Below, piece after piece: positions 44,975 to 60,521 of a stretch of 64,000 nt of DNA. The notes beneath the pieces are model-generated. The model saw only the letters and a program-made list of their open reading frames with translations, had not been told where the DNA came from and did no database searches. The stretch covers positions 1,580 through 65,579 of the forward strand of contig MHOA01000001.1 in assembly GCA_001821765.1 (NCBI GenBank), given 5' to 3'. The translations under genes were made by a program, and so were the position numbers. The DNA comes from Candidatus Ryanbacteria bacterium RIFCSPLOWO2_12_FULL_44_26. Lineage in GTDB: Bacteria; Patescibacteriota; Minisyncoccia; Ryanbacterales; HO2-45-13. The number at the start of each line of letters is the position of its first letter. The first letter of the stretch is position 1.

Positions 44975-45724
44975 TTAGTTGCCAGTTTTTATTGATTGCT
45001 CTTTTTTGCTTTTTTTAAAAGTTTCTATGATCGTCTCAAGGTTGCCATTCAGTATTTTCTCAATATGGCGCCATGATTTTTTTATACGGTGATCAGTAAT
45101 ACGGTCTTGCAGATAGTTATAGGTTCTCATTTTTTCTGAACGTTCTTGGAATCCGATTTGTATTCGGCGTTCGCTTGCGGTTTTACTTATGACACCTCCA
45201 TGCTCTCGATCGTACAGCTTTGCTCTTAAAATTGACATGGCGCGCTCACGGTTTTGTTGTTGGGAGCGTTCTGTTTGTGCTCTTACAACAATGCCGGTTG
45301 GCTTGTGTAATATACGTACAGCTGTTTCAACTTTATTTACATTTTGTCCTCCCGCGCCTCCTGATCGGGCGAATGTTATCTCAAGGTCCTGTGGTTTTAT
45401 TTCAATATCTGTCGGTGGAACCTGTTTTAAGATGGCGACTGACGCCGTCGAGGTGTGTATGCGGCCGGACTTCTCTGTTTTCGGTATGCGTTGTACTCTG
45501 TGTACTCCGCTTTCTTGAGACAATTCTTCGTATATGTTTTCTCCTTTCAGTTCGAAGATACCTTCTTTTAAACCACCCAGATCATTTTTTGATTCGCTGA
45601 TACAGTGCATCGTCCATCCTCGTTTTGCTGCGTACATTGCATACATATTGCTCAGCGTATCAGCAAAAAGCGCTGCTTCATCTCCGCCGGCCCCCGCTCG
45701 TATCTCTAAAAGAATGCTGTTCAT
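44975..45724 (-). CDS. prfA: Peptide chain release factor 1, N-terminally short (domains 2-4 only, 249 aa)
   Basis: RF1-type [17 protein letters not shown] (PxT) tripeptide, GGQ motif; start ATG overlaps rpmE stop (ATGA); in-frame stop 45 nt upstream excludes a longer N-terminus. Confidence 0.8.
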
Positions 45725-45984
45725 AAAACCTTTGTAGACTTTTTTTCCGATTTTTTGCGGGATTTTTTAGCGGGAGTTTTTAAACGGCGTTCAATTTTTT
45801 TCTGAAATTTTTCAATTCGTCCGGCAGTGTCAATAAGTTTTTCTTTTCCAGTATAGAATGGATGGCATTTGTAGCAAATTTCAACTTCAAGTTTTTCTTT
45901 TGTGGACCCCACGATAAAACTGTTTCCGCATGCACAGGTTACTTTAGCGTTCTGGTGATATGTTGGATGTAAGCCTTTTTTCAT
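45721..45984 (-). CDS. rpmE: 50S ribosomal protein L31
   Basis: [21 protein letters not shown]...[11 protein letters not shown]. Confidence 0.85.
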
Positions 45985-46243
45985 AATGTGTTGTATAGAT
46001 CTCAAATCAATTTTGAATATTAGAGAAAAGTTTCTGATTAATTAGTGATGATTATAACCGCACTGTACCATATTATATCGGGTCTTGCAATGGTTGTGAT
46101 TTTTTATTACAATGTTTCTACCCCTTCAAAGGAGGACCTGTTGGTTGTTATGAACCTTACGGCATTTCCCTCACGGATGAGGTTTGAAGAGATTCATGCA
46201 GCATCAGGCAGTAAAACTTTTTTATTTATCTTCTAAGAGACGT

Positions 46244-47050
46244 ATGGAGGAAACAAATATAATAACACAACCCCCTATAAAACCGGAAATAGAAGCATTA
46301 TTTAATGCAGGGGTTCATTTCGCGTACAAAAAAACGAGGCGTCATCCAAAAATGCGGGAGTATATCGCCGGTGTGCGCAGTAATGTCGAAGTATTTCATC
46401 TTGAACGTGTATATGAAAGACTAGTTGATGCGATGGCCTTTATGGAGAAACTCGGAACCGAGTCGGCGGTAATTCTATGGATTGGAACAAAACCCGCCGC
46501 TTGCTCTATTATTACCGACACGGCGACAGCGCTACAGCACCCATATGTTGCGAAACGCTGGATAGGAGGAACGCTGACGAATTTTAAAATCATTCGCGGA
46601 AGGGTTGAATATCTGAAAACCTTGGAAGAAGCTATACAAAATCCAGACTTTTTAAAATATCCAAAGCACGAACGCATGAAGACGAAAAAGGAAGTAGAAA
46701 AACTTCAAGAAGAGTTTGGAAACCTTCGTCTCCTTAAAAGCATTCCGAATGCAATGGTGATTGTTGACGCGAATGAAGAATTGACAGCGGTGACAGAGGG
46801 GCGAAAAGTGGGCGTGAAAACAATTGCCATTATGAATTCGGATTGCGACCCCGACGCTGTGACTTGTCCGATACCGGGGAATGACAATGCCGTTCAAAGC
46901 ATCAAATACTTAATTGGTAAATTAAAAGAAGCATATCTGAAGGGTAAAGCCTCAGCCCCCAAAAAAGACGAAGTGAGGGAAAAAGAGGTAAAAGACGAAG
47001 CATTGCAGAACCCTGTAAAAAACCACCAAGTGCCGGCAAATAGTTCTTGA
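46244..47050 (+). CDS. rpsB: 30S ribosomal protein S2
   Basis: FNAGVHFAYKKTRRHPKM..., conserved S2 core; internal Met start after GGAGG-like RBS. Confidence 0.9.
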   Translation: MEETNIITQPPIKPEIEALFNAGVHFAYKKTRRHPKMREYIAGVRSNVEVFHLERVYERLVDAMAFMEKLGTESAVILWIGTKPAACSIITDTATALQHPYVAKRWIGGTLTNFKIIRGRVEYLKTLEEAIQNPDFLKYPKHERMKTKKEVEKLQEEFGNLRLLKSIPNAMVIVDANEELTAVTEGRKVGVKTIAIMNSDCDPDAVTCPIPGNDNAVQSIKYLIGKLKEAYLKGKASAPKKDEVREKEVKDEALQNPVKNHQVPANSS

Positions 47051-47140: not shown

Positions 47141-47596
47141 ATGGATATATCAACTGAACAAATAAAAGCGCTTCGTGAGAAGACTGGTGTTTCAGTCATG
47201 CTGGTAAGAAAAGCTTTAATTGAAGCTGGTGGAGATGAAAAAGAAGCAATGAAGAAACTTGAAAAACTTGAAAGTCATCTGGCAGACAAGAAAGCGCAGC
47301 GCAATGCTTCTATGGGTGTTGTGGAATCATATATTCATCATGATGGTCGTGTTGGAGTGCTTTTGGCGCTTAAGTGTGAAACCGATTTTGTTGCCAGGAA
47401 CGAAGAGTTTAAAAAGGAAGCACACAATATTGCAATGCACATCGCCGCTATGGATCCGGCTGACAAGGAAGCGCTTCTAGGGGAACCATATGCGCTGGAT
47501 CAGTCCAGGACAGTATCCCAGGTGCTTGCCGCCATAACGACGAAGTTTGGTGAGCACATCACGATTGAAAAATTTGTTCGTTACTCCATTTCATGA
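47141..47596 (+). CDS. tsf: Elongation factor Ts (short form)
   Basis: N-terminal UBA-like LREKTGVSVMLVRKALIEAGGD; 151 aa. Confidence 0.8.
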   Translation: MDISTEQIKALREKTGVSVMLVRKALIEAGGDEKEAMKKLEKLESHLADKKAQRNASMGVVESYIHHDGRVGVLLALKCETDFVARNEEFKKEAHNIAMHIAAMDPADKEALLGEPYALDQSRTVSQVLAAITTKFGEHITIEKFVRYSIS

Positions 47597-48045
47597 TTCT
47601 GGTATTTCTTACAATATTTGTTATCAGTTTTCTTTGGATTGTGGTGATTATGTGGTGGCATACGCCAAATATGTTAAGAGCAAATAATGCTGTTTTTCTT
47701 AAGAGTCAAAGCTTTCACTTAAAAACTGACAGAATATTATCCTTCACCATTATTGTCGGTTTTGTAGAACATATTGTGAAAGTTCGTGTCATACCTCAAG
47801 TGCTTCGTTTTCTGGGTTTTTGTTTTTTTATTATTGAGCGCGGAGCGACTATTGTTTCTATAAAAGCGAGGCGTGTCCGCGCTTTTTTACAAAGCAAATC
47901 AGCGGTAACAGCTCATCAGTCTTCATATTGGGATGAAATTCGCCAATGGAAGAAGAAAAACGGGCTGGAAAATGGAAAAGCGCCTGAAAAAATAAATTTT
48001 GCGGTAGCAGATCATGATATTTCCAACCATCGTATCGATGATTAA
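47593..48045 (+). CDS. Hypothetical membrane protein
   Basis: ATGA overlap with tsf; two N-terminal TM helices. Confidence 0.35.
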   Translation: MILVFLTIFVISFLWIVVIMWWHTPNMLRANNAVFLKSQSFHLKTDRILSFTIIVGFVEHIVKVRVIPQVLRFLGFCFFIIERGATIVSIKARRVRAFLQSKSAVTAHQSSYWDEIRQWKKKNGLENGKAPEKINFAVADHDISNHRIDD

Positions 48046-48425
48046 TTTAAACTCGGATGGAGGCCGTTTTTTGAATCTTGGTATAAAAAACATTCCATAA
48101 TCTTGTGAAATGTTGCTGGCATGGTCCCGACGCGCTTTTTTATACTAAGATAGTGAAATTAGGATCTCGGCGTTTGCGAATTTTGTCGCTTTAGCCCCGA
48201 CGCACTATGATTGTATTGGATAGTGCAGTTGGAATTCTGCTTTCTTGCAAGTGACACATAGAGCGACGAAACTCTATGGCACTTTGCAGAACAGTGGAGT
48301 TGTATGTAAGACAGGGGAACAACGGTGGTGCTTATCCCGAATGAAATGTACAGATTTAGTTTTGCTGTAGAGCGGCTGTTTTGCGTCAGTCCCGCGCCAA
48401 GGTTATTATTAAAAATAAGGAACAT

Positions 48426-48663
48426 GCCGATGTAGCTTAATAGCAGAGCAACGGTTTTGCTCCGATATTCTCAAAAACAAAGGTTTTGTTAGAATATCGA
48501 GAGTCCCCGATTTTGTAAAAAAATTGCCGGCGTAGCTCAGTGGCAGAGCAGCTGTTTTGTAAACAGCAGGTCGTCAGTTCAAATCTGACCGCCGGCTCTA
48601 CAAAATTTTTACAAAATCTGGATAAACCGTAAGTTGTCGGCTTGAGTCCGACCATCGGCTCCA
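48426..48663 (+). other. Interrupted tRNA-like gene: 5' half (acceptor, D-arm, anticodon-stem 5' strand) and 3' half (anticodon-stem 3' strand, variable loop, T-arm, acceptor, CCA) separated by a 163-nt structured insert that contains tRNA-Thr(UGU)
   Basis: GCCGATG (48426-32) pairs CATCGGC (48653-59), discriminator T and CCA at 48660-63; ACGGT (48451-55) pairs ACCGT (48626-30); T-stem GTCGG/CCGAC; D-loop lacks GG and T-loop lacks C56. Confidence 0.4.
48526..48597 (+). tRNA. tRNA-Thr (anticodon UGU)
   Basis: Cloverleaf: GCCGGCG/CGCCGGC acceptor, GCTC..GAGC D-arm, GCTGT-TTTGTAA-ACAGC anticodon arm, GTCAG-TTCAAAT-CTGAC T-arm; flanked by 13-nt inverted repeats 48509-21/48606-18. Confidence 0.8.
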
Positions 48664-48738
48664 TAGTTAAAACAAACTTTTGAATGACTTGACAAGTTAT
48701 TTATTTTATGATTTATTATTAGTTGAAAGGGAGTGTAT

Positions 48739-48963
48739 ATGATAAACAAAATCGGAAAGATAGTTGTAGATAGAGATCTTTGTATCGGGGCGGCATCCTG
48801 TATCGCAATAGCTCCGGAGGTTTTTCAACTTGATGAAGAAAATAAAGCGATTGTAGTAAATCCTAAGAGAGCTGATGACGAAACGATTTTGCTTGCCGCC
48901 AAATCCTGCCCCACAAAAGCCATTATAGTATTTGATGAAGAGGGAAATCAGCTTTATCCATAA
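48739..48963 (+). CDS. Small ferredoxin (single Fe-S cluster, CxxxxC...C type)
   Basis: AAGGGAG RBS 5 nt before ATG; DRDLCIGAASC...KSCP motif. Confidence 0.65.
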   Translation: MINKIGKIVVDRDLCIGAASCIAIAPEVFQLDEENKAIVVNPKRADDETILLAAKSCPTKAIIVFDEEGNQLYP

Positions 48964-50507: not shown

Positions 50508-50741
50508 AGGAATAGATCAAATCTTGTTTGGCAGACACTATAGTGAAGATAATCCCAGCCCATTTTTTATAAAAGTAAACATGATAGCAGAAAGAATAAT
50601 TATTCATAAAAAAAGCGGCGCAAAGCGCTTCGCCCACCAAAGAGTGGGCTGTTTGGCCGCGCACTTTACAAGGAATATAAGCGATAAAAAATGGGCGGGG
50701 CGCTTAAAGTGTAGCCTTCGCTTCGTTTAGTAAATTTTAAT

Positions 50742-60171: not shown

Positions 60172-60262
60172 AATAAAGAGTTAAAAATTGTCGTTGGATG
60201 AAAAATTTGTTACTATGCTTATAGTTTTTTAGCGGGAGTAGTTCAGTTGCACCGCCACATTT

Positions 60263-60338
60263 GCCCAAGTAGCTCAGCTGGTAGAGCAACTCCATGGTAA
60301 GGAGTAGGTCAGCGGTTCAAGTCCGCTCTTGGGCTCCA
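60263..60338 (+). tRNA. tRNA-Thr (anticodon GGU), CCA encoded
   Basis: GCCCAAG/CTTGGGC acceptor, ACTCC-ATGGTAA-GGAGT anticodon arm, AGCGG-TTCAAGT-CCGCT T-arm. Confidence 0.85.
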
Positions 60339-60521
60339 GTTTTGTAGAAAAAGATACAGAAGCACCCAGAGCGTGGGACGCGCTTCGCGCGTCCCACCAA
60401 AAAATCGGTCTTTTGTCTGAAAATCGGATTCTGGAGTATATTTACGACCTCGCTAGAACCTATTTTATCAAAAATGCCTGACCAAAGGAAGCCGCCCCGC
60501 CGCCGCTCGCTAACGCTCGCC

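Follow-up and report, generated by a model that had tools for sequence, protein, structure and literature searches.

A tRNA-Thr Gene Interrupted by an Inverted-Repeat Insert That Carries a Second tRNA-Thr in Candidatus Ryanbacteria

A tRNA gene within an interrupted tRNA gene

The window analyzed here is a stretch of 64,000 nucleotides (nt) from Candidatus Ryanbacteria, a lineage of the candidate phyla radiation (CPR). Between positions 48426 and 48663 it contains what reads as the two halves of one tRNA-Thr(UGU) gene (the outer gene), held apart by an insert that itself carries a second, complete tRNA-Thr(UGU) (the inner gene). The parts of this locus are as follows.

48426-48459 (+): 5' half of the outer tRNA-Thr(UGU), tRNA positions 1-35 (from the sequence, ARAGORN on the joined halves, and the family model described below)
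48460-48622: insert of 163 nt, between G35 (48459) and U36 (48623)
48460-48503 (+): palindromic hairpin element 1, 44 nt, CTCCGATATTCT...AGAATATCG-A-GAG
48468-48495: promoter-like sequence TTCTCA-16-TGtTAGAAT within hairpin element 1 (consensus match only)
48505-48521 (+): left inverted-repeat arm, CCCC-GATTTTGTAAAAA, which closes the inner tRNA
48522-48525: AATT, unpaired 4-nt 5' leader between the left arm and the inner tRNA
48526-48597 (+): inner tRNA-Thr(UGU), including discriminator U (ARAGORN, Rfam RF00005)
48598-48605: unpaired 8-nt 3' trailer between the inner tRNA and the right arm
48606-48621 (+): right inverted-repeat arm, TTTTTACAAAATC-T-GG
48623-48663 (+): 3' half of the outer tRNA-Thr(UGU) (same sources as the 5' half)

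The 5' half comprises the acceptor strand GCCGATG, the D arm GCTT-AATAGCA-GAGC, the anticodon-stem strand ACGGT, and the loop residues UUUG up to G35. The 3' half resumes with U36 A37 A38 and continues with the stem strand ACCGT, the variable loop AAGTT, the T arm GTCGG-CTTGAGT-CCGAC, the acceptor strand CATCGGC, the discriminator U, and an encoded CCA. All 21 stem pairs form between or within the halves, and ARAGORN accepts their join as a 75-nt tRNA, in agreement with the first-pass annotation, which had taken them for two halves of one tRNA gene. That annotation also gave the insert its correct length of 163 nt, but placed it at 48461-48623; intact relatives shift it to 48460-48622. When ARAGORN is run with introns allowed, a check proposed at that stage, it reports only the inner tRNA, and the outer one is recovered only from the joined halves.

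RNAfold assigns 48426-48663 a free energy of -88.8 kcal/mol (z = -6.9), and none of 200 shuffled sequences is as stable. The predicted fold retains the outer acceptor stem, D arm, and T arm, as well as a 7-bp extended anticodon stem that opens into a three-way junction; beyond this stem lie the hairpin and the 13-bp inverted repeat, which is capped by the inner cloverleaf. The 9-bp hairpin and the 13-nt inverted repeat presenting a tRNA-Thr(UGU), both read earlier from the letters alone, are borne out by RNAfold. Between the two arms (48505-48521 and 48606-48621), 15 positions are paired, with one C.U mismatch among them, and these arms are the only exact copies of the arm sequence within the 64 kb.

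The inner tRNA (48526-48597) matches Rfam RF00005 with 72.7 bits (E 6e-14, model positions 1-71; gathering threshold 29 bits), and ARAGORN calls it Thr(tgt) with a full cloverleaf, so its earlier designation as a canonical tRNA-Thr(UGU) holds. It is 97% identical to a tRNA-Thr from Saccharibacteria (L062; L numbers designate the loci we retrieved). CCA is encoded by the outer copy and by the window's two other tRNAs but not by the inner gene; CUA follows its discriminator U. A scan of genome contigs with a pattern built from the inner T arm and acceptor stem proved far too general, returning 120 matches from many phyla, among which we found no outer-like sequence; it supplied our set of control tRNAs and locus L071, discussed below.

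Identity of the outer gene

The first-pass annotation read the outer anticodon as UGC (Ala). This reading depends on an arbitrary one-base choice of junction: the anticodon that ARAGORN reports for the joined halves varies with the join, that of the first-pass annotation giving Ala(UGC) and other joins giving many other anticodons. Because the called anticodon depends on the junction alone, the identity of the outer gene must come from homology, and the join indicated by its relatives, G35|U36, yields UGU (Thr).

When metagenomes were scanned for the outer D-arm motif, 32 contigs matched; 27 of them contain an intact tRNA-Thr (UGU or CGU) beginning at the match. Most of these have the D-loop AAUAGCA, with A18 in place of G18, and the T-loop UGCAANU, with G55 in place of U55. 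We aligned 19 intact genes (18 distinct; L136-L167) without gaps in the stems. In the alignment 98.9% of stem cells are paired and 10 of the 21 pairs change on both sides, which indicates that genes of this AAUAGCA family are real tRNAs under selection. The family was fished by its D-arm motif, so the invariance of the D-loop is partly a matter of ascertainment, while that of the T-loop and variable loop is independent of the search. The joint changes G18A and U55G constitute an apparent covariation of the 18:55 tertiary pair, and family members score 57-69 bits with the general tRNA model.

Joined at G35|U36, the outer gene is identical at 62 of 72 positions (86%) to the intact genes of L155, L163, and L141, with which it has the acceptor stem GCCGAUG/CAUCGGC in common. 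Ten positions differ: C13U (which remains a G.U pair), both members of two compensated anticodon-stem pairs, G45A, and four consecutive T-loop bases. It also displays the defining features of the family, namely a Thr-type acceptor (G1-C72, C2-G71, C3-G70, G4-C69, U73) and a D arm of the form GCUY-AAUAGCA-GAGC. Its T-loop, CUUGAGU (C54 U55 U56 G57 A58), departs from U54 G55 C56 A57 A58, which is kept in all 19 aligned intact members, at four of these five bases; its variable loop is AAGUU where the family has AGGUU (G45A); and it has no continuous 7-nt anticodon loop UU-UGU-AA, 163 nt lying between G35 and U36. The description of the outer tRNA as atypical therefore survives for the T-loop and not for the D-loop, since AAUAGCA is normal in the intact family and A18 and G19 are both kept. 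A covariance model built on the intact family is unable to reach across the insert; it scores the 5' half at 22.9 bits (E ~8e-6) and the outer T arm at only 6.1 bits (E 0.4). Judged by its sequence, the outer gene is a tRNA-Thr(UGU) of the AAUAGCA family, interrupted by 48460-48622 and damaged in its T-loop.

Intact orthologs and genomic context

The genes around the nested locus follow the order SLT-like gene, prfB (-), rpsB, a short tsf, a 150-amino-acid (aa) open reading frame (ORF), a 693-nt gap that contains the tRNAs, ferredoxin, htrA, and clpB. The neighboring features to which we refer are:

46184-47050: rpsB
47141-47596: tsf, short
47593-48045 (+): small membrane-protein ORF, 150 aa, which keeps synteny with relatives
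48046-48425: non-coding, hairpin-rich, lineage-specific stretch of 380 nt, from the small ORF to the outer tRNA
48739-48963: ferredoxin gene, its product 100% identical to an NCBI protein of Candidatus Ryanbacteria bacterium RIFCSPHIGHO2_02_FULL

By tblastn of the ORFs of the fished contigs against the window, we found the order rpsB-tsf-small ORF-tRNA-Thr(UGU) in 13 contigs (L136-L138, L140, L143, L145, L146, L150, L154, L157, L158, L161, and L162); as in the window, a further small ORF ends beside the tRNA. The tRNA is uninterrupted in 10 of the 13, the other three (L136, L161, and L162) being nests of the kind described in the next section. An intact canonical tRNA-Thr(UGU) occupies the same place in the assemblies L168, L170, and L174. 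Two further relatives by tsf differ there: L169 has a 10-nt tRNA remnant, a hairpin, and a full tRNA, and L172 has another nest. The empty site is thus represented by an uninterrupted orthologous tRNA-Thr(UGU) at no fewer than 13 related loci, comprising 10 metagenome contigs and the assemblies L168, L170, and L174. An intact tRNA at this position in relatives points to a disruptive insertion. The first-pass annotation had offered three readings, a new nested or processed tRNA, a tRNA-like structural element, and a tRNA gene disrupted by another tRNA; the last of these is the one supported, and the intact tRNA in relatives is the observation that the annotation itself had named as a refutation, pointing to a recent disruptive insertion.

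The window lineage is isolated, as the closest available relatives of its tsf are at most 61% identical. The 150-aa ORF has no database relative except itself and is tied to the small ORF of the relatives by position and by a short C-terminal motif, read by eye, alone. The distance from tRNA to small ORF is about 35 nt or less in the relatives, or the two directly adjoin, compared with 380 nt in the window. This 380-nt stretch (48046-48425) contains an inverted repeat at 48075-48151 and folds with z = -2.3; it has no Rfam match, and nothing similar occurs in any fetched locus. In other Ryanbacteria, the ferredoxin gene lies in a different synteny, with iscS-nifU-fdx upstream, and those neighborhoods contain no orthologous site.

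Three independently recorded contigs (L001, L134, and L135; sources JGI 3300009031, JGI 3300002105, and ENA ERZ28563641) agree over the 693-nt intergenic region with 100% identity, so the arrangement is not an accident of assembly.

Two further observations concern the gene order. The prfB locus (44975-46005, -) consists of two overlapping ORFs of 94 aa and 249 aa, and the prfB genes of related loci carry a CTTTGA motif, which fits the programmed +1 frameshift expected for this gene. In L170 (5194-5498) and L091, tRNA-Thr(UGU), tRNA-Tyr, and tRNA-Thr(GGU) form a tight cluster; L174 has the same order in a looser form, in which a 200-aa ORF separates tRNA-Thr(UGU) from tRNA-Tyr, and in the window the same three tRNAs (48526, 53797, and 60263) are spread over 12 kb, with ferredoxin-htrA-clpB and other genes between them.

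Nested tRNAs in other Parcubacteria

We scored the inverted repeats flanking about 240 tRNAs in all fetched loci. The window tRNA scores 13 and the nested tRNAs 9-13, whereas nearly all of the approximately 225 other tRNAs form a background that does not exceed 7.5; outside the nests, the outlier is one non-CPR tRNA (L089) at 9.5. Based on this score, on reading, and on folding, we identified eight further nested tRNAs in six other Parcubacteria contigs.

L149, first nest (L149-B): outer tRNA-Gly(CCC), interrupted at 35/36; inner tRNA-Gly(CCC)
L149, second nest (L149-D): outer AAUAGCA-type tRNA-Thr, an 11-bp stem replacing its anticodon arm; inner canonical tRNA-Thr(CGU)
L148, first nest: outer tRNA-Thr shell; inner AAUAGCA-type tRNA-Thr(CGU)
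L148, second nest: outer tRNA-Gln 5' remnant, 19 nt kept; inner tRNA-Gln(CUG)
L136: outer decayed tRNA-Thr(UGU) shell lacking the 5' anticodon strand; inner AAUAGCA-type tRNA-Thr(UGU)
L161: outer decayed tRNA-Thr(UGU) shell with a T-loop insert, interrupted as UUUUG|...|UAAAC; inner AAUAGCA-type tRNA-Thr(UGU)
L162: outer decayed tRNA-Thr(UGU) shell, interrupted as UUUUG|...|UAAAC; inner AAUAGCA-type tRNA-Thr(UGU)
L172: outer tRNA-Thr(UGU) with 7/7 acceptor pairs and an intact T arm; inner inverted-repeat-flanked tRNA-Thr(UGU)

Together with the window, these nests number nine, and several features are common to all of them: the inner tRNA is closed by an inverted-repeat stem (9/9), it lacks an encoded CCA (9/9), and it is specific for the same amino acid as the outer gene (9/9; seven Thr/Thr, one Gly(CCC)/Gly(CCC), and one Gln/Gln). 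Insertion falls at 35/36 in five nests (the window, L161, L162, the L149 Gly nest, and L172). The outer genes range in condition from untouched (L149) to hairpin-riddled or truncated (L161, L162, L172, L136, and the Gln nest of L148), the outer gene of L172 holding three further hairpin inserts. Such a series, with all stages of decay represented, is the pattern expected of relics. The outer gene of the L149 Thr nest is the ortholog of intact genes located directly upstream of prfB in L144, L151, L153, and L167.

In the window and the L149 Thr nest the AAUAGCA type is the outer gene; it forms the inner one in L136, L148, L161, and L162. This difference in order between lineages suggests repeated replacement in both directions, and the A18/G55 variant and the canonical tRNA-Thr appear to replace one another at one locus. 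Arm sequences recur with different cargo: the arm CCCCGCCCTTT is common to nests of L148 and L149, and CCC(T)CCCACCTT is common to the L136 Thr nest and the L149 Gly nest.

The two nests of L149 are arranged in tandem (1822-2215), Gly in Gly and then Thr in Thr, and are preceded by a lone tRNA-Gly-like 5' fragment with the left arm CCCCGCCCTTTC. The same contig encodes a class A RNase P RNA (930-1297), 500 nt upstream of the tandem nests.

A simpler layout is found in two loci. In L071 (7551-7716), a 10-11-nt copy of a tRNA-Thr 5' end, GCCGGGCGTAG, is followed by a CCCC...GGGG hairpin and then by a complete tRNA-Thr; L169 (4281-4384) shows the same sequence of parts, beginning with a 10-nt tRNA-Thr remnant, GCCGAGGTAG. 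The hairpins between remnant and full tRNA measure 39-78 nt. This layout may be the end state of a nest from which most of the outer gene has been lost.

Elsewhere in the window, at 60231-60262, an 18-nt tRNA-Gly-like 5' fragment, GCGGGAGTAGTTCAGTTG, together with CACCGCCACATTT, directly precedes tRNA-Thr(GGU) at 60263-60338. In L155, an AAUAGCA-type tRNA-Thr(UGU) comes after an intact tRNA-Gly(CCC), and the sequence downstream of these is the same as window positions 60339-60397. It seems that tRNA genes have been exchanged at the 60231-60338 site too.

Hairpin elements and possible mobility

These contigs commonly contain hairpin elements that measure 60-150 nt and have CCCC...GGGG ends; one of them (L157 578-657) is absent from the same site of L143. 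The termini CCCCGTTAGAAA enclose unrelated interiors in L157, L131, L155, and one viral contig, and CCCCGTTAGAAA is also the left arm directly before the tRNA of L169. The pair CCCCGTTAGAAA...TTTCTAACGGGG also bounds L131 450-544, in a contig binned as Deltaproteobacteria RBG_16_49_23, and L175 3245-3324, in a predicted viral contig. Viral contigs contain a couple of similar hairpins and no nested tRNA.

The window has an element of this design between htrA and clpB:

50554-50700: hairpin element of 147 nt, arms CCCAGCCCATTTTTTAT / ATAAAAAATGGGCGGGG, 16 of 17 positions paired

It contains no tRNA and has no Rfam match, and htrA and clpB are only 5 nt apart in another Ryanbacterium (L002). Its arms are similar to CCCCGCCCTTT/AAAGGGCGGGG, the arms by which nested tRNAs are closed in L148 and L149. 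Elsewhere, a 16S rRNA match in L162 (1-1916, -) covers model positions 9-1316 in 1,916 nt, with about 600 nt extra, and includes a 113-nt CCCC...GGGG hairpin element (1216-1328); hairpins with CCCC(C/T)ACACCAA ends, related to this element, are present in L136 and L161. An enrichment of CCCCGA(C/T) in the window was weak and noticed after the fact, and we dropped it.

The insert has some of the traits by which miniature inverted-repeat transposable elements (MITEs) are recognized, namely terminal inverted repeats, small size, and no ORF. Elements of like design are represented by 50554-50700 and by those of related contigs, where families of termini are shared between contigs; the insert's own arms are unrepeated in the 64 kb and in the fetched loci. 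Hairpin element 1 of the window has no homolog in the other fetched loci, and the hairpin elements show neither a target-site duplication nor a shared target motif, including at the filled and empty sites of L157 and L143.

Origin of the nested locus

We consider it likely that the locus is a dead resident gene hosting an inverted-repeat-bounded cassette that contains its live replacement, released by RNase P and RNase Z. Sequence comparison shows that a resident tRNA-Thr(UGU) is broken at 35/36 by an insert carrying an intact tRNA-Thr(UGU), that the outer copy has lost bases invariant in its family, and that nests of matching amino acid recur elsewhere; the inner copy is presumably the working gene now. 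It would be transcribed from the resident promoter or from the promoter-like site in the hairpin, a weak consensus match in a region where five such sites are found and 3.0 are expected by chance. RNase P would then cut at 48525/48526 and an RNase Z-type endonuclease after U48597, followed by addition of CCA; an RNase Z-type cut is proposed because the inner tRNA lacks an encoded CCA and its trailer is held in the stem. The outer halves would be a by-product and would decay slowly. The cassette itself may be a mobile, MITE-like unit or one borne by recombination. It could survive insertion into an essential single-copy tRNA gene only by bringing the same tRNA, which would explain the match in amino acid between outer and inner genes, and the result would be that tRNA genes in these reduced genomes are serially replaced in place.

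Several observations weigh against this interpretation. All 21 outer stem pairs of the window are intact, and the six nests with two halves keep 6-7 of 7 outer acceptor pairs and 5 of 5 T-stem pairs. Such preservation could reflect selection on the outer fold, or young age together with the method of recognition; in the window it is statistically uninformative either way, because the outer copy has undergone only about three independent substitution events. There is no target-site duplication, and no direct repeat flanks the insert or either of its sub-elements; no transposase or integrase was identified nearby among the eight window proteins scanned; and no second copy of the insert arms occurs in the 64-kb window or in any fetched locus. 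For these reasons we treat mobility as hypothetical. Moreover, the standalone tRNA type in the relatives of L161, L162, L136, and L148 is the inner one, so the direction of replacement varies by lineage and repeated events are needed as an explanation.

The preserved stems also speak for an alternative in which the locus is a functional composite, the outer acceptor and T-arm top half being selected as a natural tRNA scaffold rather than persisting as a relic. The scaffold might provide precursor ends through RNase P and the encoded CCA, protect against exonucleases, or time the release of the inner tRNA. The acceptor and T stems are kept in the six nests despite as many as four inserts in the D and anticodon regions (L172 and L162), the 238-nt fold is far more stable than its shuffles, and in L149 the outer anticodon arm is cleanly swapped for the 11-bp stem bearing the inner tRNA. 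However, the window outer T-loop has lost four family-invariant bases, the outer genes of L136, L161, and the L148 Gln nest are broken or truncated, most relatives have no outer shell at all, and the halves were recognized by their intact stems, which biases the count; we therefore think a selected scaffold improbable. To about the same degree we doubt that a larger element or foreign DNA with its own tRNA-Thr entered the anticodon loop and was deleted down to 163 bp, or that local recombination or template switching between tRNA-Thr copies produced the nest, with the inverted repeat incidental. One class of integrase, described by Williams in 2002, reportedly uses the anticodon loop of tRNA genes. 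Repeats resembling the anticodon loop are present (GGTTTTG at 48453, GGTTTTGTTA at 48482, and GATTTTGTAA at 48509 with its inverted copy at 48606-48618), as expected of repeated crossovers at one core site, and the downstream fragments of L162 and L136, which begin precisely within the anticodon loop (TAAACAGT...), do not match their upstream fragments, like a displaced att-type half. In the window, however, the halves belong to one gene (7/7 acceptor pairs, both of AAUAGCA type), and no segment of the tRNA is duplicated; the neighborhood contains neither an integrase nor DNA of element size. Inverted-repeat closure is moreover common to all nine nests, with arm families shared across different cargo.

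An intron is considerably less probable still. Here the insert would be removed and the outer halves ligated, giving two tRNA-Thr(UGU); removal might begin with cleavage by RNase P and RNase Z at the embedded tRNA, or require another endonuclease and a ligase. Position 35/36, which recurs in the window, L161, L162, L149-B, and L172, is also the site of self-splicing group I introns within genes for tRNA-Asn and tRNA-Asp of Patescibacteria (PMC13011429), and the ends of the insert pair with each other beside the anticodon loop. Group I introns of bacterial tRNAs nevertheless measure 184-894 nt (Patescibacteria survey, Nakagawa et al. 2026, PMC13011429), and the insert, at 163 nt, is below this range; 72 nt of it are inner tRNA, which leaves only ~90 nt of non-tRNA sequence. 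The first-pass annotation had concluded that the insert is neither a group I nor a bulge-helix-bulge (BHB) intron, and our searches agree. No Rfam model, including the group I intron model RF00028, matches the insert at E up to 10 (48150-48800 searched); at the gathering threshold, the window and the other nest loci likewise yield no group I intron. Group I splicing requires a U at the exon end and a G at the intron end; the junction that restores UGU is preceded by G35, with the insert ending in A48622, and the sole U...G junction (U34 | ...G48621) would yield the anticodon UAU. The BHB motif (two 3-nt bulges and a 4-bp helix) is absent from the minimum free energy and centroid structures of the window, whose junction is a three-way junction, and a hand check of the window and L161 revealed no staggered bulges. 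Excision of the inner tRNA alone would leave a 13-bp stem and no 7-nt anticodon loop. The outer and inner genes would be redundant, with identical anticodons, and outer genes without any anticodon loop exist (L149-D and L148). Exact excision of the inner tRNA restores an anticodon loop only in L149-D (UUUGUUU), which we judge a coincidence, and fails to do so in the window, L136, and L148. An assembly chimera or sequencing artifact, suggested only by the general risk attached to metagenome-assembled genomes, can practically be dismissed, given that the same 693-nt region is recorded under three different sources or samples and that comparable nests are present in unrelated samples.

Extending the favored interpretation, that of a dead resident gene hosting its live replacement, we tentatively suggest, while regarding it as doubtful, that the nests belong to an undescribed class of (semi-)selfish element in Parcubacteria. 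Such an element would be an inverted-repeat cassette with a complete tRNA gene as cargo, inserting into anticodon loops with a preference for 35/36 of the cognate gene and thereby destroying and replacing that gene in one step. If this is correct, selfish cassettes would drive serial tRNA turnover, as well as the exchange of canonical and G18A/U55G tRNA-Thr, in genomes that have one copy of each tRNA.

Implications and comparison with known systems

In the literature searched we found no description of tRNA-inside-tRNA nesting, or of nested bacterial tRNA genes generally, which is not proof of absence. For annotation, nested and fragmented tRNAs can yield false calls such as Ala(UGC), and they can hide dead genes and so distort tRNA-based estimates of completeness in CPR genomes. 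If the proposed mechanism is real, it shows how a tRNA gene that is essential and single-copy can be swapped while avoiding a lethal intermediate, by a turnover whose pattern is the same amino acid in and out, closure by an inverted repeat, and a hotspot at 35/36. The locus also provides a natural case of RNase P and RNase Z handling a tRNA at the tip of a stem inside a tRNA fold.

Among known systems, Rickettsia palindromic elements and Correia elements are small, palindromic or MITE-like sequences that insert into structural-RNA and protein genes. The cassettes resemble them in being short and without an ORF, in having ends that pair in a long stem and shared termini with unrelated interiors, and in occurring inside RNA genes, one hairpin lying within the L162 16S rRNA match. 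They differ in that neither a target-site duplication nor a transposase was found here, and we know of no palindromic or MITE-like element whose cargo is a tRNA gene or whose insertion site is the cognate tRNA gene.

Genomic islands and prophages that integrate in a tRNA gene bring a copy of the segment they displace and so restore the gene. As with these, insertion in an essential tRNA gene would be tolerated here as the incoming DNA supplies what it destroys. Islands and prophages, however, are kilobase-sized, encode an integrase, replace only the 3' segment, and leave a direct repeat, whereas the broken gene here keeps its two native halves and encloses an entire tRNA.

Ponchon and Dardel reportedly described, in 2007, engineered tRNA scaffolds that carry an RNA of interest in place of the tRNA anticodon arm. 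The nested locus has the same plan, with the acceptor, D, and T arms kept and a long stem and structured RNA at the anticodon loop. Those scaffolds are man-made and stabilize a passenger RNA, and the natural outer shell is likened to them by architecture alone.

The closest comparison within the phylum is with the group I tRNA introns of Patescibacteria (PMC13011429), which likewise target the anticodon loop of tRNA genes at 35/36 and, like the nests, are missed or misassigned by standard tRNA finders, including false Ala(UGC) and Thr(UGU) calls that depend on the junction. Unlike these introns, the insert has no catalytic core, 72 of its 163 nt are tRNA, and a G precedes the junction; the gene it interrupts has lost invariant bases and is redundant with the cargo.

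In archaea, mobile elements that disrupted tRNA genes have produced fragments as well as introns and split tRNAs (Sugahara et al. 2012, PMC3293823). That case, like ours, involves a tRNA-Thr locus in which fragments of one copy lie beside another, heterogeneity among populations or lineages, and a proposed mobile element. There, the element is 1.8 kb long and contains a recombinase, and its products are rescued by BHB splicing; in the bacterium described here, the insert comprises 163 bp and no protein gene, and rescue would come from the complete tRNA inside it.

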